NCBI GenBank assembly: GCA_019634385.1
Contig: JAHQVK010000175.1
Location: 333-64,332, forward strand
From: Myxococcales bacterium
GTDB lineage: Bacteria; Myxococcota; Kuafuiibacteriia; Kuafuiibacteriales; Kuafuiibacteriaceae
Reading direction: 5' to 3'
Length of the DNA stretch: 64,000 nt
Under the pieces are notes generated by a model. That model did no database searches and was not told the origin of the DNA. It saw only the letters and a list, made by a program, of their open reading frames with translations. A program made the translations under genes and the position numbers. Shown here one piece after another: positions 7,631-63,820 of the stretch (position 1 is its first letter; each line of letters opens with the position of its first letter).

Positions 7631-7778
7631 CTAGCAGGCCATCGGAAAAGTGAGTTATGCGCTTCGCTCGTCCTTTTTCCGTGGAAGGTCTGGACCGGCT
7701 TCGCCCTCTTCATCCGGAGCGTTCCACGGAAAAGATACTTCGCGGATCACCCATCCCACTTTTCCGATGGCCTGCTAG
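7631..7778. repeat. family C palindromic element, copy C1
   Basis: ctagcaggccatcggaaaagtgagtt...cccacttttccgatggcctgctag. 148 bp with 22-bp terminal inverted repeats. A3 follows after 2 bp. Confidence 0.85.
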
Positions 7779-7780
7779 GC

Positions 7781-8016
7781 TAGGGCGCGTCTTCCAACTC
7801 CGGCTGCGGAGCTGACGCGGTACAGCAAAGACCCCTTATTGATTCTTGCAGAATCAATAAGGGGTCGCGCAGCCGGGCATAGCCCGGCGTAGAATCAGGA
7901 ACTTGGGTTCAACCCAAGTGATTTCTGCTGTATCCCGCGTTTGTGAGGGTTCGTCCCCTCGGTCGGGTACATCCCGTACCTTCCCTCCGGGGCCGAAGTT
8001 GAAAGACACGCCCTAG
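7781..8016. repeat. family A copy A3 (forward, variant core) carrying nested B2
   Basis: The A termini are intact. The interior is interrupted after gacgcggta by a family-B element. It starts immediately after repeat C1. Confidence 0.8.
7823..7930. repeat. family B copy B2 (reverse), nested in A3
   Basis: cagcaaagaccccttattgattcttgcagaatcaataa...cttgggttcaacccaagtgatttctgctg. Flanked by ta/ta inside A. Confidence 0.8.
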
Positions 8017-10886: not shown

Positions 10887-11072
10887 TAGGGCGTGTCTTT
10901 AACCTCTGGATGTGGAGCTGACGCGGTATCTCGCGCGTGTGAAGGGTCGGTCCCGGAGGGAGGGTACCGGATGTACCGGACCGAGGGGCCCGAAAGGGGG
11001 GCGAAGCCACCGGCCCCTCACAAACGATGGAAACAAGTCAGCACGCGGTCCGGAGGGTAAAGACACGCCCTA
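10887..11072. repeat. family A copy A4 (forward)
   Basis: ctagctagggcgtgtctttaacc...ggagggtaaagacacgccctaa. Confidence 0.85.
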
Positions 11073-11074
11073 AC

Positions 11075-11330
11075 ATTACCTGATTGGTGTTGTCCTGAGA
11101 TGTCTGGGCATCCATTGTTCACAACAGGGGTACCGTGCCATTTTCCGTATGAGACTTCTTTTAGGAACCCAGAAAATTGGTTCCAATTCTGAGTAGAGGA
11201 CGGAAAAGTGCTTTCGGTATTGTCCACACCCCGGACGTTGAGCTCGGCCTGTTGTTTCTCCTGGATAATGTGTTGGAGCCGCTCAAACCCTTGTGAGGAC
11301 TGCTTGGCCTTGTGCCACCGCCATCTGCAT
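11075..11330 (-). pseudogene. IS5-family (IS1031/IS427-like) transposase N-terminal fragment, decayed
   Basis: The minus-strand translation PNCYVANVCRWRWHKAKQSSQGFERLQHIIQ...VDNTESTFP resembles the conserved NRWRKKGVWQRIFE...MIDSTIVRAH block of IS5-group transposases. It is truncated by a stop and has no DDE domain. It lies between repeat copies A4 and B3. Confidence 0.35.
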
Positions 11331-11552
11331 ACATTGGCTACATAACAATTAGGTATTGCGAGGTGGCATTTTAATGTCGGAGGTGGTCTATTACTTGTCC
11401 TCGAGGTACCTTAATATCCAGCAACCTGAGCTTTCCCTTTCTCATCATTTGTCTCTTCGGAGGCTAACTGTGGCTAGTCTCCTACGAGTTCAGACATTCG
11501 GTGGATCCGATATTCGCTATAGTTATTTGCCAACTTTGAGTACACATTGCAT

Positions 11553-11665
11553 ACAGCAGAAATCACTTGGGTTGAACCCAAGTTTCTGCTTCTACTCGGG
11601 CCTATACCCCGCCGCGCGCGCCTTGTTGATTCTTACAACATCAATTCAAGTGGGCTTTGCTGTAG
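11553..11665. repeat. family B copy B3 (forward)
   Basis: acagcagaaatcacttgggttgaacccaagtttctgcttctactcgggcctataccccgccgcgcgcgccttgttgattcttacaacatcaattcaagtgggctttgctgtag. Confidence 0.8.
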
Positions 11666-15671: not shown

Positions 15672-15858
15672 TAGGGCGTGTTTTTACCCTCCGGATCGCG
15701 TTCTGACTTGTATCCTGCGTTGGTGAGTGGTCGGTGGCTTCGCCACCTTTTCGGGCCCCTTGGCCAGGTAGATCCAGTCCCCTCCCTCCGTGGCCGCCCC
15801 CTCACAAACGTGGGCTACGGCGTCATCTCCGCAGCTGGAGGGTAAAGACACGCCCTAG
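15672..15858. repeat. family A copy A5 (reverse orientation)
   Basis: Reverse complement of the A consensus. Its right terminus shares CTAG with the start of repeat C2. Confidence 0.8.
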
Positions 15859-16033
15859 CAGGCCATCGGAAAAGTGAGTTAGGCGCTTCGCGGGTCCTTT
15901 TTCCGTGGAACGTCCGGACCGGCTTCGCCTTTCATCGGTTGCATACGCCCGGTATGCGCCTTCTTCATCCGGAGCGTTCCACGGAAAAGATACTTCGCGG
16001 ATCACCCATCTCACTTCTCCGATGGCCTGCAAG
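15855..16033. repeat. family C copy C2 (with ~30-bp internal insertion)
   Basis: Same termini (the right end reads cctgcaag). It carries an extra tttcatcggttgcatacgcccggtatgcgcc block. It shares CTAG with A5. Confidence 0.8.
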
Positions 16034-18862: not shown

Positions 18863-19159
18863 TAGGGCGTGTCTTTAAACTCCAGCTGCGGAGATGACGC
18901 TGTACAGCAGAAATCACTTGGGTTGAACCCAGGTTCCTGCTTCTACGCGGGGCTATGCCCCGCTGCGCGACCACTTGTTGATTCTTATAGAATCAACAAG
19001 TGGTGTTTGCTGTATCCCGTGTTTGCGAGGGTTCGGCCCCGAAGGGAGGGTACGGTAAGTACCGGACCGAGGGGCCCAAAAGGGGGGTGAAGCCACCGAC
19101 GCCTCACAAATGAGGGAAACAAGTCAGACCGCGGTCCGGAGTCTAAAGACACGCCCTAG
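18863..19159. repeat. family A copy A6 (forward) carrying nested B4
   Basis: A termini intact. B4 is inserted at the same internal ...gta|tcccgtg site as in A3 but in the opposite orientation. Confidence 0.85.
18905..19012. repeat. family B copy B4 (forward), nested in A6
   Basis: cagcagaaatcacttgggttgaacccaggttcctgcttctacgcggggctatgccccgctgcgcgaccacttgttgattcttatagaatcaacaagtggtgtttgctg. Flanked by ta/ta. Confidence 0.8.
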
Positions 19160-20007
19160 CTAGGTGGAATCATGGACGAGTACCAACCGTAAGAGACGTC
19201 CTAATGAGGGACAATACGGACTCAAGTCTGCAGAGCGAAGATGGAGCCTTTATATCTCCGCCCCGAATACAAAACACCACGAGGTGATCCGCCATTGGGG
19301 GTAAAGTGCTGGCGAAGATAATGTTTCGCGGTGCGCGACTGGTTTGGGGTCTTGTTTTTGGCTCTGCACCAAGCGGACCGACCTCGGCCTCTTGTTGAGG
19401 GGTGCTTACGTCGATTGAGGGATGCGTAAGTTGTTCCATTCTCGCTAGCCCATTGGGGCAAAACTATCCCTGAATGCAGAGCGCCACGGGACTAGAGTGA
19501 TATGTACAGTTTGCTGTACAATAGTTCTACGTAGCCCTAGCATTGATAGTCTCTATGTGACTGGAGTAGTTGGTATGGAGCGGTCACAAAGTTGATGGTT
19601 TTCAATACGCGGTTGCCGAAAGTTGGTCTCAGCGGGGTTTGTGGTCGCGGGGTGTTCTGGCGGTTGAATTGTCGGTTGCTACGACACTTAGGCGGAGTTG
19701 GGCACAAGTACACTATGCTCCGTCCCCGAATGGCGAGGACGAGTCACTAGGTAGGTTATTGACTGATACTGCGTGTGAGTCGGATTCATAGCTTTCTTGT
19801 GTATTGAGACAACGAATGCTTGAGTGTCTACGCTGTCTGTTGGTGAGGGTTGGGTGTTGGAAGGTTATAAAGTGCCTTAATCCGTTGTTGACCAGTTCGT
19901 AGGAGACCCACTTGACAGCTGGCTTGATGTATCGGTTCAAAGTTTCCCAGCATCAATGTGGGGAGGTGCACAGCTGATGTCGGCAGAGCTGGCAAAATTG
20001 ACTGGCT

Positions 20008-20121
20008 ACAGCGGAAATCACTTGGGTTGAATCCAAGTTCCTGCTTCTACGCGGGGCTATGCCCCGCTGCGCGACCCCCATGTTGATTCTTACAGAATCA
20101 ATTCAAGTGGTCTTTGCTGTA
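20008..20121. repeat. family B copy B5 (forward)
   Basis: It has the same structure as B4. It lies at the left edge of the AT-rich leader of the MotAB-helicase island. Confidence 0.8.
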
Positions 20122-20668: not shown

Positions 20669-20675
20669 GAAGGAG
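20669..20675 (+). promoter_or_regulatory. Shine-Dalgarno-like AAGGAG upstream of TTG start of first operon gene
   Basis: aaggag lies 5-6 nt upstream of the TTG at 20681 that opens the 366-codon ORF. Confidence 0.4.
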
Positions 20676-20680
20676 CCTCT

Positions 20681-21781
20681 TTGAGAGCCGTCAACGACGA
20701 AGCGTGTAGAGTTGTTATCGAGCCGGATCGCTGTGATCTGCAAGAGGCAACCTACGATCCCCGGCTGTCATCGGCTGGACGAGATGATGGTCAGCATGTT
20801 GTTTATACAACAGTAGATCGGGTTGTCTATCAGCCGGCACCAGACGTCGTGGAGAAGATCCTCGATGCCAATGGATATTCAATGAATCTCGAGAATATCC
20901 TTGCGGTACTTGACGAGGTCAAAATTGGTTACCGGCTTCAGGTGTCGAACGAGCCTTTGGCCCCCAACTCTGTCCCCATCGCCAAGACTTTTCTGCCTGC
21001 ACTCACCCTGCGACTCCCGATGAAGAACCGGGTGGGTCCACTGCTTGCAAAGTTCTATGCTGAGGTTGGTGGATACCAGAATGAACTTGTTCGGCTGCGT
21101 GAGCAAGCGGGACGAGCTCATGGAGGACAACGAAAAGAGCTGGAAGACCTTCGTCGAGAGCACGAGAAACTCAAGGCGGAGAATGAGCAGCTTCGAACCC
21201 AGGTTGACAGTCTCAATGCTGAGTTGGGTCAACTTCGAAAATCCCACGCAGCGGCCAATCACGCCTTGGCTGAACAGAATATTTTGCCGGCTCAGGTGCG
21301 TGTGGCTCAGGTGCACAAGGTTGACTTGGAGGAGCGATATGTTGCGCTTAAGTCAGGGCGCAAAGTCTTCAGTGTCCCCTTGGTGGCCATCTGGGTCTAC
21401 CCGGAAAAAGACGAGCCGTGTTTAGTTAGTATCCAAGACGGTGAAGTATCGGGCGTATTTTTTCATGAAGGTGCTCAGCCTATCCCCGGTATGGTCCTGG
21501 GTGAGGTGCTTCATGTGGCTGAGGGGCAGTGCAAAGTTCGGGAAGAAAACCGCCGTACACGGGTCATTCAAGCTCAAAATCCTGCGGAGAAGGAACTCAT
21601 CAGTCAAATGAGACGAGGGGACCGAGTCTTGTTATTCCTTCACAACGATGAGCTTCTGAGGTTTGTTCCCTGTGGAACGTTCAACGCGGAAGCTTTTGCT
21701 CGCGCGGTACAAGAATCTATCGCTCGTTGGGAAATTGCACAGTCGGAAGAACAGGGGTCAGATGGAACAGGGCCTGTATAG
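20681..21781 (+). CDS. hypothetical cytoplasmic coiled-coil protein (first gene of MotAB-helicase operon)
   Basis: 366 codons with a probable TTG start. The central segment (residues ~130-190; ELVRLREQAGRAHGGQRKELEDLRREHEKLKAENEQLRTQVDSLNAELGQLRK) is heptad-rich. Its 3' end overlaps the next gene by 20 nt. Confidence 0.5.
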   Translation: MRAVNDEACRVVIEPDRCDLQEATYDPRLSSAGRDDGQHVVYTTVDRVVYQPAPDVVEKILDANGYSMNLENILAVLDEVKIGYRLQVSNEPLAPNSVPIAKTFLPALTLRLPMKNRVGPLLAKFYAEVGGYQNELVRLREQAGRAHGGQRKELEDLRREHEKLKAENEQLRTQVDSLNAELGQLRKSHAAANHALAEQNILPAQVRVAQVHKVDLEERYVALKSGRKVFSVPLVAIWVYPEKDEPCLVSIQDGEVSGVFFHEGAQPIPGMVLGEVLHVAEGQCKVREENRRTRVIQAQNPAEKELISQMRRGDRVLLFLHNDELLRFVPCGTFNAEAFARAVQESIARWEIAQSEEQGSDGTGPV

Positions 21782-22586
21782 TCGAGCCTATTTCTCTAAG
21801 CCGCGAGCGGGAAGAGATTTCTTATCTGTTGTTACCAGCGCAATTGGGCTGGGTGCTGTAGGTTGGGCCGTTACACAAACTAGCTCTTTGGAGCAACTAG
21901 TTGATGTACGGAGTATTTTCATTGTGGGAGTGGGAACGGTCGCCACTACTCTGCTACAATATAATTTCCGGACGTGTTGGCTCACCTTAGTATCTATTCT
22001 GCGGTCGCTTTTGGGTACGCCCGTCAAAGCCGCAGTGGCCATGCGGAGAGAAATTGACGACGCGATCATCAATGGTGATCACTTGGTTACCTTGCGTGAG
22101 GGAACTCGCGTGACCGGGGAGCTTCTAAACGATATCGTATTTATGTATCGGCAAGGGCTCTTGTTTGACGAGATCGACCAATTTGTTACCTCCCGTTTGG
22201 AGGCTGAATTGAGCGACAAGCGGGTAGCGGCAGAATTACTTCGACGAGCAGCGCTTACGGCACCAGCCCTCGGACTGTTTGGAACGGTATTAGGTCTGAC
22301 AGGGGTGCTCCGATCCATGGATGATCCAACCAAGATAGGGCCATTGATGTCCCTGGCCCTGATGACAACCGCTTATGGATCAGGCCTTGGATCCTTTGCG
22401 TGTACACCACTAGCTGGTCGATTAGAGCATCATAATACCGTTTTTGTGGAAGTCCATCGACAGCTATTGAGTCGGGTAGGGATCCTTCTTGCTCGCGAGG
22501 AGCGTACTTTTGGTGTGACCCATGCACCTCAGATTAGTGACAATGCATCAGACCAGATTAGAACTTCCGAGCACGCCGATAACTGA
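21762..22586 (+). CDS. MotA/PomA-family proton-channel subunit (stator-like, compact, no C-terminal tail)
   Basis: Four TM segments. TM3 APALGLFGTVLGLTGVL and TM4 ALMTTAYGSGLGSFACTPLAGRL carry the conserved prolines of MotA. The ATG at 21762 is preferred over the track start at 21663. Confidence 0.7.
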   Translation: MEQGLYSRAYFSKPRAGRDFLSVVTSAIGLGAVGWAVTQTSSLEQLVDVRSIFIVGVGTVATTLLQYNFRTCWLTLVSILRSLLGTPVKAAVAMRREIDDAIINGDHLVTLREGTRVTGELLNDIVFMYRQGLLFDEIDQFVTSRLEAELSDKRVAAELLRRAALTAPALGLFGTVLGLTGVLRSMDDPTKIGPLMSLALMTTAYGSGLGSFACTPLAGRLEHHNTVFVEVHRQLLSRVGILLAREERTFGVTHAPQISDNASDQIRTSEHADN

Positions 22587-23193
22587 CGAGTCTAGCGCAT
22601 TCTTCATCAGTCTAAGCGATCTGATGATCCTGCTGTGCGTCTTTTTTATTATGATGGTTAGTGTAAGTAAGATCGATATGGGCTCTTTTGAGCGGGTACG
22701 CAGTGCTCTACAAGGTCATACCCAAAATACCCTGGTTGAGCTGTCGGATCGATTGGAGGAGATGGTCACTGAAGAAGCTGGTATCTCCGGGGTAGAGGTC
22801 GGTATTGGTCGGGAGGGGGTACGCCTGGATTTTGAGGCCGCTGCTCTTTTTGATTCAGGCAGTGCTGTGCTGAAAACTGGCGCTTTAGACGGCATGTTAC
22901 CAATTTTTGAAATCATTAGTACCACTCGCTACCGTATTGATGTTGAGGGACACAGCGATGATGTTCCGCTACACCGAAAAAGTGGAGATGAACTAGAAAC
23001 AAATTGGTCACTGAGTGGACGGCGAGCGAGCAGCGTGGTTCATCGTCTACAGGAATTGGGTTTTCCGCCTAGCCGGCTTCGTATCGTGGGGTATGCGGCG
23101 ACGCGGCCCAAAGTACCTATTGATGGACTCAGCGAGGAGGCCCTTGATCGTGCCCGCGCTGAGAATCGAAGGGTGTCTATCTTAATTCGATGA
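22522..23193 (+). CDS. MotB-like protein: single TM with conserved Asp plus OmpA-like peptidoglycan-binding domain
   Basis: SLSDLMILLCVFFIMMV contains the protonatable Asp at the MotB/TolR/ExbD position. The C-terminal part has OmpA-like motifs (VEGHSDDVPL ... NWSLSGRRASSVVHRL). The alternative start at 22543 is equally possible. The stop overlaps the next start. Confidence 0.7.
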   Translation: MHLRLVTMHQTRLELPSTPITDESSAFFISLSDLMILLCVFFIMMVSVSKIDMGSFERVRSALQGHTQNTLVELSDRLEEMVTEEAGISGVEVGIGREGVRLDFEAAALFDSGSAVLKTGALDGMLPIFEIISTTRYRIDVEGHSDDVPLHRKSGDELETNWSLSGRRASSVVHRLQELGFPPSRLRIVGYAATRPKVPIDGLSEEALDRARAENRRVSILIR

Positions 23194-26100
23194 GCGCGGC
23201 TATGAACCCTCCGGAAATTGAGCATCCGCATGCTCTTCAGCAACAGGTGGTCGTTAAGCACGACCGTTGGCACCGCTTTGTCATCAGTCGGAACTTGGAT
23301 CCCAGTGGTCTATATAGTTATCGACTGACTAATGCAGCTAAGCGAGAGGCACTGATAGTGCCTCTTGATCTTTTTGAGCGCTTTAGGCTAGACGTGCGTT
23401 CTTTCGCAGTGAGTGACAGGGTTGGGGATGAGGACCAACCGACCTATACCGAGCTGCGTTTTGGGGGTCGAGTATGCTTTGCCTTTCAGCGGGGACGGTT
23501 ACCGGCTGACTGGATAAAAATTCTAAGTTTCGGTGCAGATGAAGTTCCCAATCAAGAGTTTTCTATTGCTGCATCCGCCGGAGCATCATTGGTATCGGTG
23601 TTGTTCCATCCGCAGCTTGAGCATCCTCATGATCTCTTAATTCGAATTGTAACCTACCACCGATTGTTTTCCGCGACATTTCAAGGAGGAAGCGAAAGTA
23701 TCACCAGTAATTTGCAACTAAGAAAAGATCTCCTTTGTCATGTTGATCGATATACGCCGTCGCTCGTAAAAAAATCGCCAGAGGCGCAAACGGAGGAAGT
23801 ACTCTCAGATCCGGCGATGTTGAAAGACCTAGCGGTGGGGACCCCAACCCCAAAAAATAGCTCAACTTTTAAGTCGCGTCTTGGGGAAAGAGATGAGGAA
23901 AACAAATATCTGGTGGACTATGAGTCCTTGTTTTCGAGTAGGGCTACCCGTGGTCGAAAGAAGAGTCCGTCTAATCCTGCTTTGGATTTAAATACAACCT
24001 CGTCATCGGACGAGAACGTGGGGCACTTTGCGGTGCCACTTTTAGCAAAAGATATAAAGGCGTTTGCCAAGGTACCATTTCGATGTGAGCTCTCTCGAGG
24101 GGATGCGAAAATCCTTCGACAAAATTTCTTAGACGACCGAGATGCTTCCTTCTTTCTTGGTTTCGAGATGCTGGACTGCATATTCGAACAGCGCAAGAAA
24201 TTATATACTTATCGATTTCCGTTATACTATATTCCGGTACGAATTGTAGAGTCGGGGCGAGAGGCTATTCTTCATCCGCTGGAGGATAATCGTTTCTACT
24301 TGAATCATTTTGCGTTGGCGAATCTTGTAGAAACCTATTCTTCGGCTGGGCAAGCGGCAAAGCGACTGTCCGGTTTATTATCTTCGCTGCTGACCCACCA
24401 GTTTATCGTCCGTGGTGCCCAAGATCGGGTTCGAATCATACGGATGCTTCCATCACATTCGGAGGTGTTTGAGCGAACGAGGGAAATACTTCTCGGGCTG
24501 CCCGGTGAAGAAGGAAAAGGAGGGCTACTTTCTGAGGTTAAAGTTCGTGCGATTGAATGTGACTTGGAAAGTGTTGTTCTTTACAAAGCACCTCAGTCTT
24601 CCTCCCCAATCATTCGTGCTTTGGACGATGATCTAACCAAGATTGTGGCTCTCGCGAAGCGAGGAAAAGGTGCTTACCAGTCATCGCTGTTGTCTCGCGC
24701 CCTTTCGGGGAATCTCGTGAGTGTTGATGGAGGCCAAGACGAGGCGTTTTCTCGCGCTCTGTCCATGCACAGCGCGCCAACGCGGGCGGTTCGGGCGTTG
24801 ATGGGACGTCTCAATTCAAGTGATCTGGTGCTGCTTGAAGGTCCCCCAGGAACCGGAAAGACCTACACGATTGCCAACCTTCTGATTCACTGCGTTGCGA
24901 CCGGTCGCCGTCTGCTAGTGGTCAGTGATCAGAAGGCAGCGATTCAGGCCCTGGTGGAGCAAATACAGCAGTATGTGGTCGGGTCAAAGAAGAATACCGC
25001 CGAGGGAAAGCAGCTAGGTTTGTTATGGCGACTTGCAATAAAGGTAGTGGACGAGCTCCCGGAGAACACCGAATCTTTAGCTTCTTGGTCGAGGCAAGTT
25101 CGGCGTATGCTCGGCGTGGACATATCTTTAGAATTGGACTGGGGCAGTCCGGTTGATGGGTATGAGCGGGCGATTTCTCGTATAGATGTAAAAATAGCAG
25201 AAGCTGTGAAAGAAGTTGGGCTGGCCGTTCGGCGTCGCTTCGGACAGGATAAGCGATGGCGAATCCCTGTGGTGGCGGACAAGTCGGAGCATCCTAACTC
25301 AGAGAATGACGTGCAGGCTGCTCTTGAGTTGTCAGAGCGTTTACTTAGCATGGAGGGACTGCGGGAGTGGTTGGCTAGCTATTTGGGATCTCTTCAGCGT
25401 TTACTTGAGCTTAAGCTTTCCGCAATGTTCGAGTTGTTCGCGTTACGAGGCCGCAAAGATGTGGCTGTTCAACGTCTTGAACGGACCGTTGATTGGCTGA
25501 GGCGCTTGCTCCTCGAAATGCCGACCAGCATGGAAGAGTATGAGCAGCTTGAGGTAGCGGATACGGTAAAGGCGGTTCAGGCCGGCCTTGCACCCCGATG
25601 GAGAGAGTTCTATCCCCCGAAACTGGGTTGGGCGGCGAGAGCCGCTCGACTCGTGAGTCCGTTCTCTGGTGGGGCGCAACTCCGTAAATTGGTTCGGGAG
25701 TTGATCTCTATGGTTGAGAAGCAGCTGCTACTTTGGGAGCAGCAGCCAGCCTGGGATGGTGAGGTATGGCAGAGCCTTGGACGACTGCACGCGACAATAT
25801 CGCCGGATACTAAGGGATCTATTGATATTGCGCTGGAATTGCTTCTTGCTGAGTGTAGTGATCTTCACCAGGAAGAGTCGATTCACGAGAAGCTAGAATA
25901 CATTGCTCAAATGCAGCGAGATCGAGATGATCTGGTGCGTCAGCAATTTTTGTATGGGCTTGGGCGTATCGGTCAGCGCGCGTTTGCCTCTGCTCGTGGT
26001 GGGGGAACCAGTCGCCTCACGAGTATACTGGCGATGCTCGACCGCTTAGAGTCAGCACAATCTTGGGCTAAAGCTCAAGATACTGTCCGAGAGCTCCGAG

Positions 26101-27440
26101 AGTTGCTGTTTGATGTTTTCCCGATTTGGTTGTCTCGCAAGCAGGCTGTTTCGTTCTTACTACCATGTCAGGAGCAGAGTTTTGACCTTGTGGTGGTGGA
26201 TGAGGCGACGCAGTGTCGGGTTGATGATGCGCTTCCTCTGTTATTTCGGGGGAAGAAGCTCATGGCGGTTGGAGATGAACGCCAAACAGTACTCGCAAAG
26301 AACTCGGCGATCGATGATTACCTGTTTGACGACTTTGAGCTTGATGAGCATCTAAGCTTAGCTCAGGCTCGTGGTATTAAAGGCGGGGGATCTCACCTTT
26401 TTGGTCTTATTAAACGAATCAAGCAGGCATCGGTCATGTTGGATGAGCACTACCGCTGTCCGCCGGATATAATTGAGTTTTCGAATAGGTATGTATATGA
26501 AAACCAACTGCGTACCATGCAGTGGAAGATGCTCGGTTCCCCACAGTCGGTGATTGTTGATAATAGTGAATCTCGAGTACCACCCAGCGAACGGGTCCGT
26601 TCTGGAAAGTACAAGGGCACTGAAATCAGCATGATCGATCGATTTTTCGTTTACGTAGCTCGAACCATTCGACGTCTGGAGCGAGAAACCGGTCAGGAAA
26701 TAGATCCAGAAACGGATGTGGCGATTGTCTACTTTCTTCTTAAAAACGAGGCCTATATTAAAGATAAAAAGAGTGAACTGCTGAGAAAGTTACCCAGGGG
26801 TCGAGATATTCTCGATGGAGCGGGCGCGGCTCTTCAGGGTAAAGAGCGGGATTATATCTTTTATCTATGGGATATGACTCGATACAATATGGCTGCATTT
26901 CGTCAAGGAGATGATGAAAGTAAGCGTAAGGGTGAGCTAAATGTCCTGATGAGTCGTCCAAAAAAGCGAGCGTATCATTTTCTCCATAGAGAATTTGACC
27001 AGCTTAAGCATCAAACCAGTTCGATATCAGACTACCTTATGCGTGTTCAGCAAAGGAGCTATCGTAACCGAAGTTTGTCCAGTGAGCGAGGTTCTGGGTT
27101 GCTCATGCGGATGCTACTCGAGCGAGCACTGTCTGAAGATGGGGTAGAGCGCAGCGAGCTTCAACTGGAGGTCCCCATTGGTAACCAGTTACTTGGTGTT
27201 GATCTCATGTGGCTCCCTCCTAAGAAACGAGAGGAACAGTCTTCAATTGGACTGGTAGATCTGAGTATATTTGGCAGTAGTAGAGATCCTGGTCAAGATG
27301 TGGTGGACTATTTCTTTCAGGTGCAGCGAGCGATACCACGGGTCCAACCAGTATTTGGCTTTGTACACGAGTTTGCTCGTTCGTCTTCGGTGGTGATAGC
27401 TCGGCTTAAGTCACTCGCCCGGCAACGAAAAGAGGATTAA
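23190..27440 (+). CDS. 1416-aa multidomain protein: DUF4011-like N-terminal region, Upf1/DNA2-type SF1 helicase core (AAA_11/AAA_12), uncharacterised C-terminal domain (possible nuclease)
   Basis: The N-terminal YRFPLYYIPVRIV...ILHPLEDNRFYLNHFALANL block resembles DUF4011. Walker A LLEGPPGTGKTYTIANLL is at ~aa 545. Motif II VVVDEATQCRVDDA, then MAVGDERQ, and motif IV-like YRCPPDIIEFSNRYVYENQL follow. The C-terminal 170 aa (GVDLMW...IGLVDLSIF) are unassigned. Confidence 0.75.
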   Translation: MSAAMNPPEIEHPHALQQQVVVKHDRWHRFVISRNLDPSGLYSYRLTNAAKREALIVPLDLFERFRLDVRSFAVSDRVGDEDQPTYTELRFGGRVCFAFQRGRLPADWIKILSFGADEVPNQEFSIAASAGASLVSVLFHPQLEHPHDLLIRIVTYHRLFSATFQGGSESITSNLQLRKDLLCHVDRYTPSLVKKSPEAQTEEVLSDPAMLKDLAVGTPTPKNSSTFKSRLGERDEENKYLVDYESLFSSRATRGRKKSPSNPALDLNTTSSSDENVGHFAVPLLAKDIKAFAKVPFRCELSRGDAKILRQNFLDDRDASFFLGFEMLDCIFEQRKKLYTYRFPLYYIPVRIVESGREAILHPLEDNRFYLNHFALANLVETYSSAGQAAKRLSGLLSSLLTHQFIVRGAQDRVRIIRMLPSHSEVFERTREILLGLPGEEGKGGLLSEVKVRAIECDLESVVLYKAPQSSSPIIRALDDDLTKIVALAKRGKGAYQSSLLSRALSGNLVSVDGGQDEAFSRALSMHSAPTRAVRALMGRLNSSDLVLLEGPPGTGKTYTIANLLIHCVATGRRLLVVSDQKAAIQALVEQIQQYVVGSKKNTAEGKQLGLLWRLAIKVVDELPENTESLASWSRQVRRMLGVDISLELDWGSPVDGYERAISRIDVKIAEAVKEVGLAVRRRFGQDKRWRIPVVADKSEHPNSENDVQAALELSERLLSMEGLREWLASYLGSLQRLLELKLSAMFELFALRGRKDVAVQRLERTVDWLRRLLLEMPTSMEEYEQLEVADTVKAVQAGLAPRWREFYPPKLGWAARAARLVSPFSGGAQLRKLVRELISMVEKQLLLWEQQPAWDGEVWQSLGRLHATISPDTKGSIDIALELLLAECSDLHQEESIHEKLEYIAQMQRDRDDLVRQQFLYGLGRIGQRAFASARGGGTSRLTSILAMLDRLESAQSWAKAQDTVRELRELLFDVFPIWLSRKQAVSFLLPCQEQSFDLVVVDEATQCRVDDALPLLFRGKKLMAVGDERQTVLAKNSAIDDYLFDDFELDEHLSLAQARGIKGGGSHLFGLIKRIKQASVMLDEHYRCPPDIIEFSNRYVYENQLRTMQWKMLGSPQSVIVDNSESRVPPSERVRSGKYKGTEISMIDRFFVYVARTIRRLERETGQEIDPETDVAIVYFLLKNEAYIKDKKSELLRKLPRGRDILDGAGAALQGKERDYIFYLWDMTRYNMAAFRQGDDESKRKGELNVLMSRPKKRAYHFLHREFDQLKHQTSSISDYLMRVQQRSYRNRSLSSERGSGLLMRMLLERALSEDGVERSELQLEVPIGNQLLGVDLMWLPPKKREEQSSIGLVDLSIFGSSRDPGQDVVDYFFQVQRAIPRVQPVFGFVHEFARSSSVVIARLKSLARQRKED

Positions 27441-27542: not shown

Positions 27543-27724
27543 CTAGCAGCCTGTTGATTTGTCCATGTGTGTAGCTATCGAGCCAGGATTTTCGAGAAAC
27601 GCTCTGACGACGAGGCGAGCGTACCTGGCGGTGCGTGACCGAGGAGAGACTTTTAGTGGTCAGAAAGTTTCACGCAAAGACTGGCCGATAGATGCGTGCA
27701 GGGCTAGATCAACAGGCTGCTAGG
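27543..27724. repeat. family D palindromic element, copy D1
   Basis: ctagcagcctgttgatttgtcc...ggctagatcaacaggctgctag. 182 bp with 16-bp perfect terminal inverted repeats. Confidence 0.8.
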
Positions 27725-27908
27725 GGGTGTCTTTACGCTCCGGCTACGGAGATGATGCCGTGTCCCACGTTTGTGAGGGGTCGTGCTCGGAGGGAGGGTA
27801 CCGGGATGTATTGGGTCGAGTGGCCCGAAAAGGGGGCGAAACCACCGACACCCTCACAAACGCGGGAAAGAGTCAGAACGCGGTCCGGAGTTTATAGACA
27901 CGCCCTAG
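27721..27908. repeat. family A copy A7 (forward)
   Basis: tagggggtgtctttacgctccgg...gtttatagacacgccctag. Shares CTAG with the end of D1. Confidence 0.8.
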
Positions 27909-29851
27909 CAAGAGAACGGTTGCTTCTGTGTTCGAGCCGTTTCTGTATAGTGTGCTGGGAGTTGATTTAGTGATTCGCGAAGCTGTTGCTCACCAAGCTC
28001 AAGGAGCTTCTCGCCCCGATTCAGAAGATCCTCTACAGTGTGAAACCAACGAGTATATTGATCTATGAAGTTTCGGCCCAGCTCGGTAGGTGTTTTAGCC
28101 ATACGTTCCGCTGCGTAGCGTTCAATTTCAATTTCTAGAAACATAGTCTGAATAATGGGCGTGCTGAACGAGAGGAAAATATCACCTCCCTCAATGATAA
28201 CCTTTTGACGTATGATATCAAGAGTTTGGTAGGGATCCGTTTTTATCAGAGCGTCAAGATGTAACTCGGAGATATCGGGCGGACTATAGTTTATTTGGCA
28301 TTGTGAGGAGAATGATTTGCCTAAATCTAGCAATTTCCGTGTTTTCTGATTGGCTTCTCGTGTATCCTGAATTTGTGCTAAGAGCTGTTGCTGTTTAGAA
28401 GACTGCTCTGTTTGGTCTTTCGGCAGACAAGCAGCTAGCAGGAGGGGGCGGGGATCAGTACCCTTTCTGAGAGAGGTTAAGAGCTCAGGTAGTTCGCCAA
28501 CTTCGGTACGTGGAATATGAAGACCACGGGCCGTTGCGTTGATAACCCGGCCTGAGTAGTCTGCAATGTCGAGATCAAATTGCCGTTGGAATTCCAGCCA
28601 CCGGGAGGTGGTGGTGACGGTATCGCCTCGGGAGCCTTTGGCCTCAATTGCAGGCTGTGTGTTGAACCACTTGATCCTATTTCCGGTTGCAGTACCCTCA
28701 GCGTGTGTATTGCCGTTTTCGGCAAAACATAAATCTTGTCCAACAAGGATAATGGGATTACATCCCGCTAGAGCAGCGATTCGAAAGGCTAAGTTACCTG
28801 CGGAACCACCAAACTCAAACTCTGGTTCATCAACACCTAGCCATTGATGAAAATCTGCGGAGCGAAAAATCAGAGCAAGCGGGCCTTGGTAGTTAGATAG
28901 TATACTTGGTTGCAGTACTGGACAACATGCAAGTACTGTGTCCGGCGCTTCAAGATTCTCAAAATGACGAATGGTCATCTCTACGCGCTCTCGAGAGGTG
29001 GCGACATGTGGGCGAATTCCAGCAGCCTGTAAGATGCGTATAGATGTGTCGGGACAAAAAATAGGTACTTGGTCTTGAATGGGTTTTAAGTATGGAAGAC
29101 TGGCTTGTAAGGAAGGGCCCGCAGAAGCAACGATCGCGGGACGGCCTTTTAATATGTCTTTGAAAGCCCAGATGCTTTTCGATCGAGAAAGTATAGGTAG
29201 GTTGTGACAAATGTTTTCAAGGCCAAGCAAGACATCATTGTAGTCGTTGCCTATCATACGGGCACCGTTTTTCACTGAGTCTAAGAATATATTGGATGCT
29301 GCAACAACATAGTTGGGATATCGATGGGCAGCTCCGTGGGGTACAACCTGAGCAATACTTTTGCAGAAAAAATTATAGCGAGCATGGATGGTGTTCACGT
29401 TGAGCCTGAGTTTCAGCTCGTCGAGTGTTTGACCTATTTGCCAATCGACATGTTTATGGGCAATGGCAGAACGTAAATCAGTCATTCGTATTGCGCACTG
29501 GAAAAGGGCTACATCGGGCTCAACAACGAGGATAGTGCGATCTCTACCTTTGAAGAGTTGGAGAAGCGCATTGAGCTCCAGGCCGAGACCCAGCCCGAAG
29601 AGTCCGACCAAACGGCATTTCTGGATATCTTCGCGGCGTTGTAGCTGCTCCAGTGCGCTAGTAACAGTAGGTGTATACCATTTCTCCTGGTTGTTGGTGT
29701 CCAATAAATTGAGCGTTCCGTCAGGATCTTGGACCGTCCGTAGTGATGAAGGAGAGAGTGTGCTGGCAAGCTCGACGAGCTGCGGTCGATGCTCTTGTAG
29801 AGCAGCCATATTGGCGTCAAAGAATGGCCCGTGCATGCAGTCCCTTTTCAT
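27905..29851 (-). CDS. Maf-like (motility-accessory-factor family) protein with MptE-like/DUF115 domain
   Basis: 648 aa. AIVASAGPSLQASLPYL...FCPDTSIRILQAAGIRPH matches the GPSL-containing DUF115 core of Maf glycosyltransferase-family proteins. No flagellin genes lie nearby. Confidence 0.45.
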   Translation of the reverse strand: MKRDCMHGPFFDANMAALQEHRPQLVELASTLSPSSLRTVQDPDGTLNLLDTNNQEKWYTPTVTSALEQLQRREDIQKCRLVGLFGLGLGLELNALLQLFKGRDRTILVVEPDVALFQCAIRMTDLRSAIAHKHVDWQIGQTLDELKLRLNVNTIHARYNFFCKSIAQVVPHGAAHRYPNYVVAASNIFLDSVKNGARMIGNDYNDVLLGLENICHNLPILSRSKSIWAFKDILKGRPAIVASAGPSLQASLPYLKPIQDQVPIFCPDTSIRILQAAGIRPHVATSRERVEMTIRHFENLEAPDTVLACCPVLQPSILSNYQGPLALIFRSADFHQWLGVDEPEFEFGGSAGNLAFRIAALAGCNPIILVGQDLCFAENGNTHAEGTATGNRIKWFNTQPAIEAKGSRGDTVTTTSRWLEFQRQFDLDIADYSGRVINATARGLHIPRTEVGELPELLTSLRKGTDPRPLLLAACLPKDQTEQSSKQQQLLAQIQDTREANQKTRKLLDLGKSFSSQCQINYSPPDISELHLDALIKTDPYQTLDIIRQKVIIEGGDIFLSFSTPIIQTMFLEIEIERYAAERMAKTPTELGRNFIDQYTRWFHTVEDLLNRGEKLLELGEQQLRESLNQLPAHYTETARTQKQPFSC

Positions 29852-30827: not shown

Positions 30828-30961
30828 CAGCCGGTTGGTTTGGCTAGGTAGCTCTTCTTCGGGAGGTTCTTTCGGTGGAATATCTCGAGCGGTCCGCCTC
30901 CTTATTGGTTACATACCCTTTGTGTACTCTCATTTTTTGCAAAAAAATTTCAGCGATAGTC

Positions 30962-31147
30962 TAGGGCTGTTTTTATACTCCAGCTGTGGAAATGCCGCCT
31001 TAGCCTGCGTTTGTGAGGGGTCAGCGTCGGAGGGAGGGTACCGCACGTACCGGGCCACGAGGCCCGAAAGGGTGGCGAAGCCACCGACTCGTAGCAAATG
31101 CGGGAAACAAGTCAGAACGTGGTTCGGAGTTGCAAGACACGCCATAG
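30962..31147. repeat. family A copy A8 (forward, degenerate)
   Basis: ctagggctgtttttatactccagc...gttgcaagacacgccatag. Diverged about 20%. Confidence 0.65.
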
Positions 31148-31194
31148 TGTTGGCGATCGTGGCTCAGTCAAATCAACGGCTGCTAGAGCCAGAA

Positions 31195-31307
31195 TACGGC
31201 AAAGACCCCTTGAATTGCTTCTGTAAGAATCACCAAGCGGTCGCGCAGCGGGGCACAGCCCGGCGTAGAAGCAGTCACTTGGGTTCAACCCAAGTGATTT
31301 CTGCTGT
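31195..31307. repeat. family B copy B6 (reverse, degenerate start)
   Basis: ...caaagaccccttgaattgcttctgtaagaatcaccaagcggtcgcgcagcggggcacagcccggcgtagaagcagtcacttgggttcaacccaagtgatttctgctgtag. It lies 48 bp from A8. A solo D-type terminus (atcaacggctgctag, 31172-31187) sits between them. Confidence 0.7.
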
Positions 31308-31504
31308 AGTCTTGAGCTGTCTATCTTTATCATCAATAAGACTCCCTTGCTGACCGGATAGATGTTCGGCTGTCCTCCCAGAACCTATGAGTTGCCGAGC
31401 CGTACTTGGGTAAAGCACAGTATTGTACCCCTCCGATCAACAAGACTTTGAATTACATAAGTCAGCTATTGTCAGCCACCTTTGGCAAGACGCTCCGCAT
31501 TGTT

Positions 31505-36723: not shown

Positions 36724-36838
36724 CTACAGCGGAAATCACTTGGGTTGAACCAAAGTTCCTGCTTCTACGCTGGGCTATGCCGCGCTGCGCGACCCCTTGT
36801 TGATTCTCACAGAATCAATTCAAGTGGTCTTTGCTGTG
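36724..36838. repeat. family B copy B7 (forward)
   Basis: ctacagcggaaatcacttgggttgaaccaaagttcctgcttctacgctgggctatgccgcgctgcgcgaccccttgttgattctcacagaatcaattcaagtggtctttgctgtg. Confidence 0.8.
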
Positions 36839-36891: not shown

Positions 36892-37071
36892 TAGGGCATG
36901 TCTTTAAACTCTGGCTGGGGTGATGACGCTTTATCCAGCGCTTGTGAAGGGCCGGCCCCGGAAGATACTGGATGTACTGGGCCGAGGGCCCGAAAGGGTG
37001 GCGAGCCAACGACCCCTCAAAAATACAGGAAACAAGTCAGAATGCGGTCCGGAGCTTAAAGACACGCCTAA
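36892..37071. repeat. family A copy A13 (forward)
   Basis: ctagctagggcatgtctttaaactctgg...ggagcttaaagacacgcctaa. It lies 54 bp from B7. Confidence 0.8.
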
Positions 37072-46044: not shown

Positions 46045-46220
46045 TATGGCGTGTCTTCAAATTCCGGCCCGCGTTCCTACTTATTTCCCACATGGGTGAG
46101 GGGTCGTTGGCTTCGCCCCCTTTCGGGCCCCTCGGTTAGGTACATCCCGTACCCTTCCTCCGGGGCCGGCCCTTCACAAACACGGGATACGTCGTCATCT
46201 CCGCAGTCGAAGTTTGAAGA
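46045..46220. repeat. family A copy A9 (reverse, right terminus truncated, abutting B8)
   Basis: Reverse-complement A core (ggcttcgccccctttcgggcccctcgg...). It ends at gtttgaaga without a terminal inverted repeat and is joined directly to a 5'-truncated B8. Confidence 0.7.
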
Positions 46221-46221
46221 T

Positions 46222-46309
46222 GAATTGATTCTGTAAGAATCAACAAGTGGTCGCGCAGCGGGGTATAGTCCGGCGTAGAGGCTGGGTTCAACCCCAGTGA
46301 TTTCTGCTG
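46222..46309. repeat. family B copy B8 (reverse, 5' truncated) abutting A9
   Basis: gaattgattctgtaagaatcaacaagtggtcgcgcagcggggtatagtccggcgtagaggctgggttcaaccccagtgatttctgctg. Confidence 0.7.
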
Positions 46310-46321
46310 AATTGTTGACGT

Positions 46322-58453: not shown

Positions 58454-58578
58454 GCTAGGGGCGCGTTGCTGAGTTCGGTCAGGAACTATCGCTAAGCGCC
58501 TGGATCCCTCCGGGGCCAACCCCTCACAAGGCGGGCTACGTGTCAGCTCCGCAGCCGGAGGCTAAAGACACGCCCTGC
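58454..58578. repeat. family A copy A10 (reverse, internally deleted)
   Basis: ctaggggcgcg...ccctccggggccaacccctcacaaggcggg...gcagccggaggctaaagacacgccc. It keeps both ends and lacks part of the core. Confidence 0.55.
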
Positions 58579-61643: not shown

Positions 61644-61765
61644 GACACCATCCAGAGTCGACTAAGGTCGATGAACGTCCATGGCGACCACCGTGTAAGC
61701 TAAAAAGCGAGTGTCTGTTGCGCCAGCTAGTTGGTGAGTTTAGCTAAAAGCACGGGTTATGCACC

Positions 61766-61856
61766 TACAGCAAAGACCCCTTGGTCCAGACACGGACCCC
61801 TCACAAATGTGGGAAACGAGTCAGAACGCGGTCCGGTGTTTGAAGACACATCCTAA
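61766..61856. repeat. composite fragment: B-like terminus joined to right half of A (A11)
   Basis: ctacagcaaagacccc (B end) followed by ccctcacaaatgtgggaaacgagtcagaacgcggtccggtgtttgaagacacatcctaa (A right arm). Confidence 0.5.
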
Positions 61857-63725: not shown

Positions 63726-63820
63726 TAAGGGCGCGTCTTTGCCCTCTGGCCGTGGAGATGGGGCCGTATCCGGCATGTGCGAAGTGTCGGCCCCGGAGGG
63801 AGGGCAAAGACACGCCATAA
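63726..63820. repeat. family A copy A12, internally deleted 95-bp derivative
   Basis: taagggcgcgtctttgccctctggccgtggagatggggccgtatcc...cggccccggagggagggcaaagacacgccataa. Both arms are kept and the central hairpins are lost. Confidence 0.6.

Follow-up and report, generated by a model that had tools for sequence, protein, structure and literature searches.

We describe a four-gene cassette, A-B-C-D, in a 64,000-nucleotide (nt) stretch of DNA from a Myxococcales bacterium (GenBank assembly GCA_019634385.1, contig JAHQVK010000175.1; the whole stretch is hereafter designated the window), in which a MotAB-type ion-motor pair (B and C) is encoded together with a large superfamily 1 (SF1) helicase carrying a predicted nuclease domain (D) and a soluble protein with predicted tandem oligonucleotide/oligosaccharide-binding (OB) folds (A). 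The order A-B-C-D was kept in every related locus with enough sequence, about 20 loci in all. The reading that the cassette is a Zorya-like defence machine, to which we assign by analogy a probability of about one half, is ranked first because type I Zorya is the only known system with this logic.

An open reading frame (ORF) check of the window confirmed the four ORFs listed in an initial annotation of this DNA, all on the + strand and extending over 20681-21781 (A), 21663-22586 (B), 22522-23193 (C), and 23190-27440 (D). In the identical public contig, the gene caller starts B at ATG 21762, C at ATG 22543, and D at ATG 23202, the last corresponding to Met5 of the 1416-residue ORF, and gives proteins of 366 (A), 274 (B), 216 (C), and 1412 (D) amino acids (aa). 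The features of the cassette are as follows, where residue numbers of D refer to the 1416-aa ORF.

20670..20675, + strand: Shine-Dalgarno-like AAGGAG, read from the sequence, 5 nt 5' of the TTG start of gene A
20681..21781, + strand: gene A, 366 aa, soluble; N-terminal region, long helix, tandem OB folds, and C-terminal helix (predicted)
21762..22586, + strand: gene B, 274 aa, MotA/PomA-type A subunit (PF01618); ORF open from 21663
22543..23193, + strand: gene C, 216 aa, MotB/PomB-type B subunit; 223 aa from the alternative ATG 22522
23202..27440, + strand: gene D, 1412 aa, soluble SF1 (Upf1-like) helicase; 1416 aa from ATG 23190
24129..24341, + strand: N-terminal conserved core of D, residues ~314-384, with GFE..D.IF, FRFPLYY, ESGR, and LNH.ALA; possibly remotely DUF4011-like
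24840..24863, + strand: Walker A motif GPPGTGKT of D, residues 551-558, invariant in 30 homologues
24987..26114, + strand: insertion of ~375 aa in D, residues ~600-975, between motif Ia and motif II of the first RecA-like domain
26199..26213, + strand: motif II DEATQ of D, residues 1004-1008; D1004, E1005, A1006, and Q1008 invariant
27093..27437, + strand: C-terminal Vsr/DUF559-like domain of D (PD-(D/E)xK superfamily), residues ~1302-1416, predicted endonuclease fold

The overlaps of 20 nt between A and B and of 44 nt between B and C (65 nt if C begins at ATG 22522) agree with the initial annotation, whereas the ATGA overlap that it gave for C and D exists only with the D start at 23190. The start common to the homologues is 23202, 8 nt past the C stop, and because of these shared N-termini C and D are more probably spaced by 8 nt than overlapped. 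The TTG start of gene A at 20681 has an equivalent in the distant loci L001 (7478), L002 (7419, likewise in L005), and L006 (7431). What looked like an internal stop within gene B at locus L014 was the ordinary stop codon of that gene, and promoter and terminator scans gave nothing above shuffled sequences.

Of the related loci, 13 were drawn from species genomes and assemblies and the others from metagenomes and further assemblies, and short gaps or overlaps separate the cassette genes in all those with enough sequence. This order and tight spacing span three phyla, the hosts being Myxococcota, Oligoflexales/Oligoflexus, Gammaproteobacteria metagenome-assembled genomes (MAGs), one MAG labelled Bacteroides, and the isolate Teredinibacter sp. 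ISS155, which is the one cultured host known. The genes are far beyond chance, and the same four recur in the same order. Moreover, the pairwise identities of the four proteins group the loci alike, with A evolving fastest and C slowest; the genes have therefore been inherited as one unit, and A-B-C-D is one co-inherited module, which supports the four-gene operon of the initial annotation. The distribution is rare and patchy, with at least 13 loci among 185,579 species genomes scanned. Family D consists of 38 full-length homologues (1325-1468 aa), beyond which the next matches are generic SF1 helicases, with a step in E-value from 1e-274 to 1e-17, and D was never found alone, A, B, and C always standing alongside. 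A profile search for family A retrieved 126 members among 1.84 billion cluster representatives; the full-length ones (about 330-450 aa) are laid out alike, and no fusions to anything else occur. Judged from these profile searches, families A and D are closed and confined to this cassette.

The pair B/C has the make-up of a flagellar stator. B matches MotA_ExbB (PF01618) in Pfam at an E-value of 3e-17 and has four transmembrane segments (TMs), of which TM1-3 are hydrophobic and TM4 is less so, with a cytoplasmic domain of about 100 residues between TM2 and TM3 that is highly conserved within the family and includes ELLNDIVYM..QGLLFEEID. The prolines P168 (TM3) and P216 (TM4) are invariant in 14 homologues, in keeping with the compact MotA/PomA-like protein recognized initially, and B, at 260-274 aa, extends only about 50 residues beyond TM4, so that the missing ZorA-type tail is also confirmed. 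The stretch from TM3 to TM4 (22254-22421) displays a PomA-like polar pattern, with GT in TM3 and TT in TM4; T175, T202, and T203 are invariant, and the equivalent positions line the Na+ site in PomA. C contains one TM with the Asp in SLSDLMILL (codon 22618-22620; D26 of the 216-aa protein), matches MotB_plug (2e-8) and OmpA (1e-12) in Pfam, and aligns to solved MotB/PomB over the TM with its Asp, over the plug helix, and over the OmpA domain, which bears out its earlier description as a MotB-like protein. The best solved relatives of B are Vibrio PomA (2e-13) and then other flagellar MotA proteins, and its comparison with the Protein Data Bank (PDB) gave no ZorA, ExbB, TolQ, or GldL at E ≤ 1. 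In NCBIfam, the best match of B is PomA (2e-22), with TolQ far behind, and that of C is flagellar MotD (1e-32); the match of C to the PADLOC ZorB models (5e-15) is weaker than those to flagellar MotD/MotB-family models. Set beside the published criteria for the flagellar clade, namely a four-TM A subunit with a cytoplasmic interface, a plug plus linker, and an OmpA-like domain (PMC12505986), B/C look like a flagellar-clade stator. Collectively, these sequence comparisons assign B/C to the flagellar PomAB/MotAB type, not the ZorAB type.

This assignment might suggest that B/C are an ordinary (auxiliary) flagellar stator and that A and D are unrelated neighbours. In favour of such a view, the top-scoring matches of B and C are flagellar PomA/MotA and MotB/PomB, and a Maf/MptE-like glycosyltransferase gene (PF01973 plus Maf_flag10_N; 27905-29851, - strand), which converges on the end of gene D, is kept in the closest relative, L030 (7322-9274; 72% identity in D). 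The scores, however, lie far below the curated equivalog cut-offs of NCBIfam, at 79.6 bits versus 341 for B and 113.3 versus 283 for C, and flagellar similarity at the equivalog level is reached by neither protein. The cytoplasmic loop of B aligns poorly to PomA despite its conservation within the family, the Maf-like gene is absent from the other loci, and in each locus and phylum the four genes occur jointly, either overlapping or with little space between them. Nor are there flagellar structural genes near any locus; a flagellar, Ton, Tol, or gliding context was found neither in the 64-kb window nor within ±10 kb of the related loci, and none of the operons is embedded in a flagellar or gliding cluster. 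The initial statement that the window lacks flagellar genes holds for structural genes over all 64 kb and has to be qualified for the Maf/MptE-like gene. We therefore regard the ordinary-stator explanation as highly improbable.

D matches AAA_11 and AAA_12 in Pfam, and GPPGTGKT, VVVDEATQ, and YRCPPDIIEF, the motifs quoted in the initial annotation, are present and invariant in 30 homologues. The nearest solved relatives are IGHMBP2 and Sen1, and the core is therefore Upf1-like SF1, as had been proposed. The AAA_11 match consists of two stretches that flank the insertion of about 375 aa, which is poorly conserved. Among the PADLOC and NCBIfam models, the antiphage helicases PDC-S37 (2e-23), MkoA/MkoC, Hhe, ProA, and PLuB match D best.

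The label "DUF4011-type" previously given to D finds no support in Pfam. The N-terminal 530 residues match no Pfam family, PF13195 (DUF4011) included, in the window protein or in the N-termini of 16 members; hmmsearch with profiles of the N-terminal region, the insertion, and the C-terminal region gave no signal against DUF4011 helicases, and neither the N-terminal nor the C-terminal profile found anything useful among the PDB sequences. A weak signal came from profile-profile comparison alone, where hhalign of the N-terminal core with the DUF4011 regions of distant helicases scored 29.5, against 15.1 ± 2.0 (maximum 20.0) for 48 column shuffles and 22.3 for the reversed profile, and paired FRFPLYY..V.I..ESGR and LNH.ALA of D with the DUF4011 core. 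This result is suggestive of a remote homology of the N-terminal core to DUF4011.

At the other end, the last ~115 residues of D gave a confident structure model (predicted local distance difference test (pLDDT) score, 86.5) with an alpha-beta-beta-beta-alpha-beta core, which folds as a Vsr/DUF559-like endonuclease; RAP domains also match. Strands two and three bear D1338 and D1357, and the next helix bears D1373, Q1377, and R1380, all five being invariant. Pfam PF18741 was not detected in this domain, and its profile comparison did not rise above the corresponding shuffles. The earlier suggestion of a C-terminal nuclease is thus supported at the level of the modelled fold and the invariant acidic residues, and a functional nuclease is likely.

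For A, Pfam gave nothing beyond coiled-coil noise. The AlphaFold model (mean pLDDT, 67) consists of a single helix at aa 115-198 (about 84 residues, about 12 nm), a well-predicted beta-rich region at aa 206-331 forming tandem OB-fold barrels, and a C-terminal helix; residues 1-116 are poorly modelled, yet several positions among them are invariant. Foldseek matched A to the coiled-coil-plus-OB interdomain of Mpa and also to EF-P and S1, and the OB folds resemble those of EF-P, S1, and the cold-shock domain (CSD). According to the model, A combines a coiled coil with tandem OB folds, a build that would suit ring formation or the binding of single-stranded nucleic acid. A and D lack a TM segment and are therefore cytoplasmic partners of the motor. 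The initial annotation had proposed that A could supply the function of the ZorA tail in trans. That tail is a pentameric coiled coil of about 70 nm, present in all Zorya subtypes (PMC11946911), and A cannot replace it because its single helix, followed by the OB folds, spans only about 12 nm; the proposal was rejected.

From the module described above, we infer that the four genes encode one machine and that their products form a complex. Such a machine may work as follows. B/C would be an ion-driven inner-membrane motor of the PomAB/MotAB type, presumably of 5:2 stoichiometry, closed by the plug of C and held to peptidoglycan through the OmpA domain of C, and the conserved cytoplasmic domain of B would engage A and D in place of FliG. 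A would contribute tandem OB folds that bind single-stranded nucleic acid or form a ring, and D would act as a helicase-nuclease built overall like Hhe, an antiphage helicase encoded by a single gene. The motor would be unplugged when the envelope is disturbed, for instance by an adsorbing phage or the injection of a genome, and ion flow and the rotation of B would be passed on to A and D. Recruited or activated at the membrane, D would then translocate on the incoming nucleic acid and cut it with its Vsr-like domain. Overall, the scheme would follow the same logic as type I Zorya, but with parts that are not orthologous. While the gene content, the conservation of the cassette, the domain folds, and the intact catalytic and ion-path residues are plain to see, we infer what triggers the machine, in which direction it signals, what it acts on (DNA or RNA), and that it serves in defence. 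In favour of such a defence machine stand the kept gene order and shared inheritance, the closed, cassette-specific families A and D, the invariance of the functional residues of B, C, and D, the antiphage helicases that match D best in the defence libraries, the predicted layout of D, which parallels that of Hhe-type proteins, the cytoplasmic nature of A and D, the lack of a flagellar, Ton, Tol, or gliding context, and the published precedent of Zorya. A more specific version, which we put forward tentatively and at somewhat less than even odds, is that a flagellar-lineage stator was recruited independently of ZorAB as the membrane sensor and actuator of a helicase-nuclease immune effector, giving a second, convergent origin of motor-coupled immunity that dispenses with the long tail and uses a separate coiled-coil/OB-fold adaptor.

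The signal may also run in the opposite direction, as in abortive infection: D, with A, would sense foreign nucleic acid in the cytoplasm and unplug B/C, whereupon the ion leak would depolarize the membrane and halt growth. The MotB-type plug indicates a channel that is closed by default and has to be opened by a cytoplasmic partner, A and D are cytoplasmic, and Zorya itself was first explained in this way, as cited in PMC11946911. For Zorya, however, it was rejected experimentally, since defence is direct and involves no cell death (PMC11946911). In addition, a pure sensor would have no need of the nuclease fold and the invariant acidic residues that D retains, and the conserved peptidoglycan-binding domain of C points to envelope coupling over a simple leak. 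The reversed direction is, in our estimation, distinctly improbable.

Several observations weigh against the Zorya-like defence reading. B lacks the long coiled-coil tail of ZorA and matches no PADLOC ZorA model at E ≤ 0.1, and B/C are nearer to flagellar stators than to ZorAB, their best PDB matches all being flagellar stators; a kinship with ZorAB is not supported. The matches of D to defence helicases cover the generic helicase core only and lie far below the cut-offs. The genomic context gives no support for defence either. The flanking genes are housekeeping genes in all loci examined and differ between clades, and no defence gene stands beside the cassette in any locus (PADLOC on 78 flank proteins of 12 loci). 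Neither integrases nor transposases occur among the listed flank families, a scan of viral contigs found generic SF1 cores only and no member of the family, and protein A had no match in a plasmid collection. In a freshwater Oligoflexales clade, the locus occupies a fixed chromosomal position, with both flanks conserved (62-88% by tblastx) and the cassette proteins 55-88% identical, so that the cassette diverges about as much as its flanks. This parallel divergence at a fixed site indicates vertical descent, and there the cassette looks like a stable core operon.

Owing to the lack of a defence-island context and this stable inheritance, a physiological, non-immune role stays under consideration, although we deem it unlikely. 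The cassette would then encode a membrane-anchored helicase-nuclease, coupled to the ion-motive force and acting on nucleic acid, whether imported or the cell's own, for instance in envelope DNA/RNA turnover, in the uptake of prey or environmental DNA, or in RNA quality control. Besides the housekeeping flanks and the vertical inheritance with fixed flanks in one clade, the proximity of the Upf1-like core to the RNA/DNA helicases IGHMBP2 and Sen1, the likeness of the OB folds of A to EF-P, S1, and CSD, and the additional match of the C-terminal fold of D to RAP domains are consistent with such a role. So is the finding that three unrelated loci (L010, 6234-7190; L027, 6471-7259; L028, 700-1377) have an RNA-modification gene immediately before gene A and on its strand, two encoding an RluD-type pseudouridine synthase and one a Methyltransf_30 protein; this arrangement may be due to chance. 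In L027, TGT and QueA genes also lie downstream of the cassette. Against a non-immune role stand the rare and patchy distribution, the lack of any neighbouring gene conserved across clades, and the antiphage proteins that are the closest named relatives of D. Furthermore, no housekeeping process is known to use a stator pair together with a helicase-nuclease. If this role nevertheless proved correct, B/C would be the first flagellar-clade stator to drive a nucleic-acid enzyme for another purpose, which would challenge the view of this clade as purely flagellar (PMC12505986). With these points weighed, the Zorya-like defence machine remains our preferred reading.

As for the neighbourhood itself, the cassette of the window is flanked by genes for phosphofructokinase and DAHP synthase. 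Elsewhere, the flanks contain ATP synthase, RluD, TGT, and QueA, or PBP1, BamD, TonB, and SLT, or M16 peptidases, and further flanks carry glutamate synthase and the dnaG-rpoD operon. The PADLOC matches of flank proteins to MzaA (1.8e-76) and RT_UG29 (4.5e-44) were rejected, being RpoD and DnaG, and the rest were generic kinases and helicases; the housekeeping RpoD/DnaG genes of L008 (9288-11084 and 11170-12939, - strand) are a trap for automated defence-island calls. An origin of the cassette from a mobile element was rejected as well, the search of viral contigs having yielded no member, that of plasmids no match to protein A, and that of PHROGs nothing informative.

The window is also rich in repeats. 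An element of about 200-310 nt, resembling a miniature inverted-repeat transposable element or repetitive extragenic palindrome (MITE/REP-like), fills most intergenic regions and has the terminal inverted repeats TAGGGCGTGTCTTTAAACTCCGG ... CCGGAG..TAAAGACACGCCCTA; such repeats bracket the cassette, but nearly every other gene block likewise. The apparent ORFs 27692-27970 and 30835-31353 are translated MITE/REP-like element. A second repeat of about 115 nt (TACAGCAGAAATCACTTGGGTTGAACCC...TTGATTCTTATAGAATCAA...) occurs in both orientations; one copy (18903-19015) is nested within a MITE/REP-like element, and the 2-kb gap that precedes gene A contains two. Other multi-copy segments of 75-103 nt with 80-95% identity form the separate families D10-D13. 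The copies are located as follows.

MITE/REP-like element, first half of the window: 300-500, 2067-2223, 7781-7995, 10887-11087, 18863-19173, 27721-27907, 30961-31161
MITE/REP-like element, second half of the window: 36892-37071, 58528-58576, 61753-61855, 63727-63810
Repeat of about 115 nt: 2-62, 7838-7932, 11552-11663, 18903-19015, 20007-20120, 31214-31308, 36725-36837, 46224-46318
Families D10-D13: 7631-7995, 15746-16033, 46118-46220

The cassette is absent from the resources in which a known system would be expected, as the initial annotation had anticipated. Pfam, NCBIfam (2026), PADLOC v2, and PHROGs hold no model for A or for the cassette, and the full-text literature searched describes neither an SF1 helicase linked to a MotAB-type pair nor a further Zorya type. 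In the cited literature, Zorya is the only immunity-linked 5:2 ion motor, and the path from rotation to effector is still being worked out. The stator of the present cassette is much smaller, of flagellar type, and joined to a helicase-nuclease by way of a separate 366-aa partner. If the cassette serves in defence, motor-coupled envelope sensing would have arisen more than once, and a simpler experimental system would be at hand, with four genes, no 70-nm tail, and the cultured host Teredinibacter sp. ISS155; if the origin was convergent, the system would offer a compact means to learn how the rotation of a 5:2 motor activates a cytoplasmic enzyme.

Parts of the cassette have counterparts in other known systems. 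The likeness of A to the N-domains of Mpa/ARC/PAN, in which a coiled coil precedes OB folds, is architectural only, with low TM-scores; A lacks an AAA+ module, and its N-terminal region has no counterpart there. D shares with the Hhe/DUF4011 helicase-nucleases, which are single-gene antiphage proteins (NCBIfam NF042953; PADLOC Hhe and PDC-S37), an Upf1-like SF1 core split by an insertion, with intact AAA_11/AAA_12 motifs, and may also share, by prediction, a remotely DUF4011-like N-terminal core and a C-terminal Vsr/DUF559-fold domain. It differs from them in that the similarity is limited to the helicase core (71.8 bits versus the NF042953 cut-off of 2000), Pfam DUF4011 and PF18741 are undetected, and D always occurs with A, B, and C. 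B/C resemble PomAB/MotAB (the "FIT" clade, PMC12505986) in the four-TM A subunit, the cytoplasmic domain between TM2 and TM3, the TM3/TM4 prolines, the PomA-like GT..G and TT motifs of B, and the TM Asp, plug, and OmpA-like domain of C, and the best PDB and NCBIfam matches of both are flagellar stators. They depart from them in the diverged cytoplasmic loop of B, the scores far under the equivalog cut-offs, the lack of a flagellar gene context, and the constant linkage to A and D.

The logic of the cassette would recall that of type I Zorya, where ZorAB senses a perturbation of the envelope and recruits ZorC/ZorD, and phage DNA is degraded (PMC11946911); the sequence of motor, tail, and recruitment of ZorC/ZorD is thus a published precedent (PMC11946911; PMC11890865). 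Membership in Zorya itself fails on the tail, on homology to ZorA, and on the effector families, no PADLOC match to ZorC plus ZorD, ZorE, or ZorF plus ZorG being found in A or D. C has the plug and linker of MotB, whereas ZorB has neither, its peptidoglycan-binding domain being fused straight to the TM (PMC11946911). With respect to type I Zorya, D is an SF1 Upf1-like protein with a Vsr-like C-terminus, in contrast to the Snf2/DEAD-type ZorD; A is unrelated to ZorC and comes first in the gene order; and the cassette loci lie outside defence islands. Both systems nevertheless consist of four genes and combine a MotAB-like, peptidoglycan-binding ion motor having a conserved TM Asp with a soluble, possibly nucleic-acid-binding protein (ZorC in Zorya, A in the cassette) and a large helicase with a nuclease (ZorD and, by prediction, D), and, by analogy, effector recruitment at the envelope (PMC11946911) may be common to both. 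We class the cassette as an undescribed variant of motor-coupled nucleic-acid effector systems.

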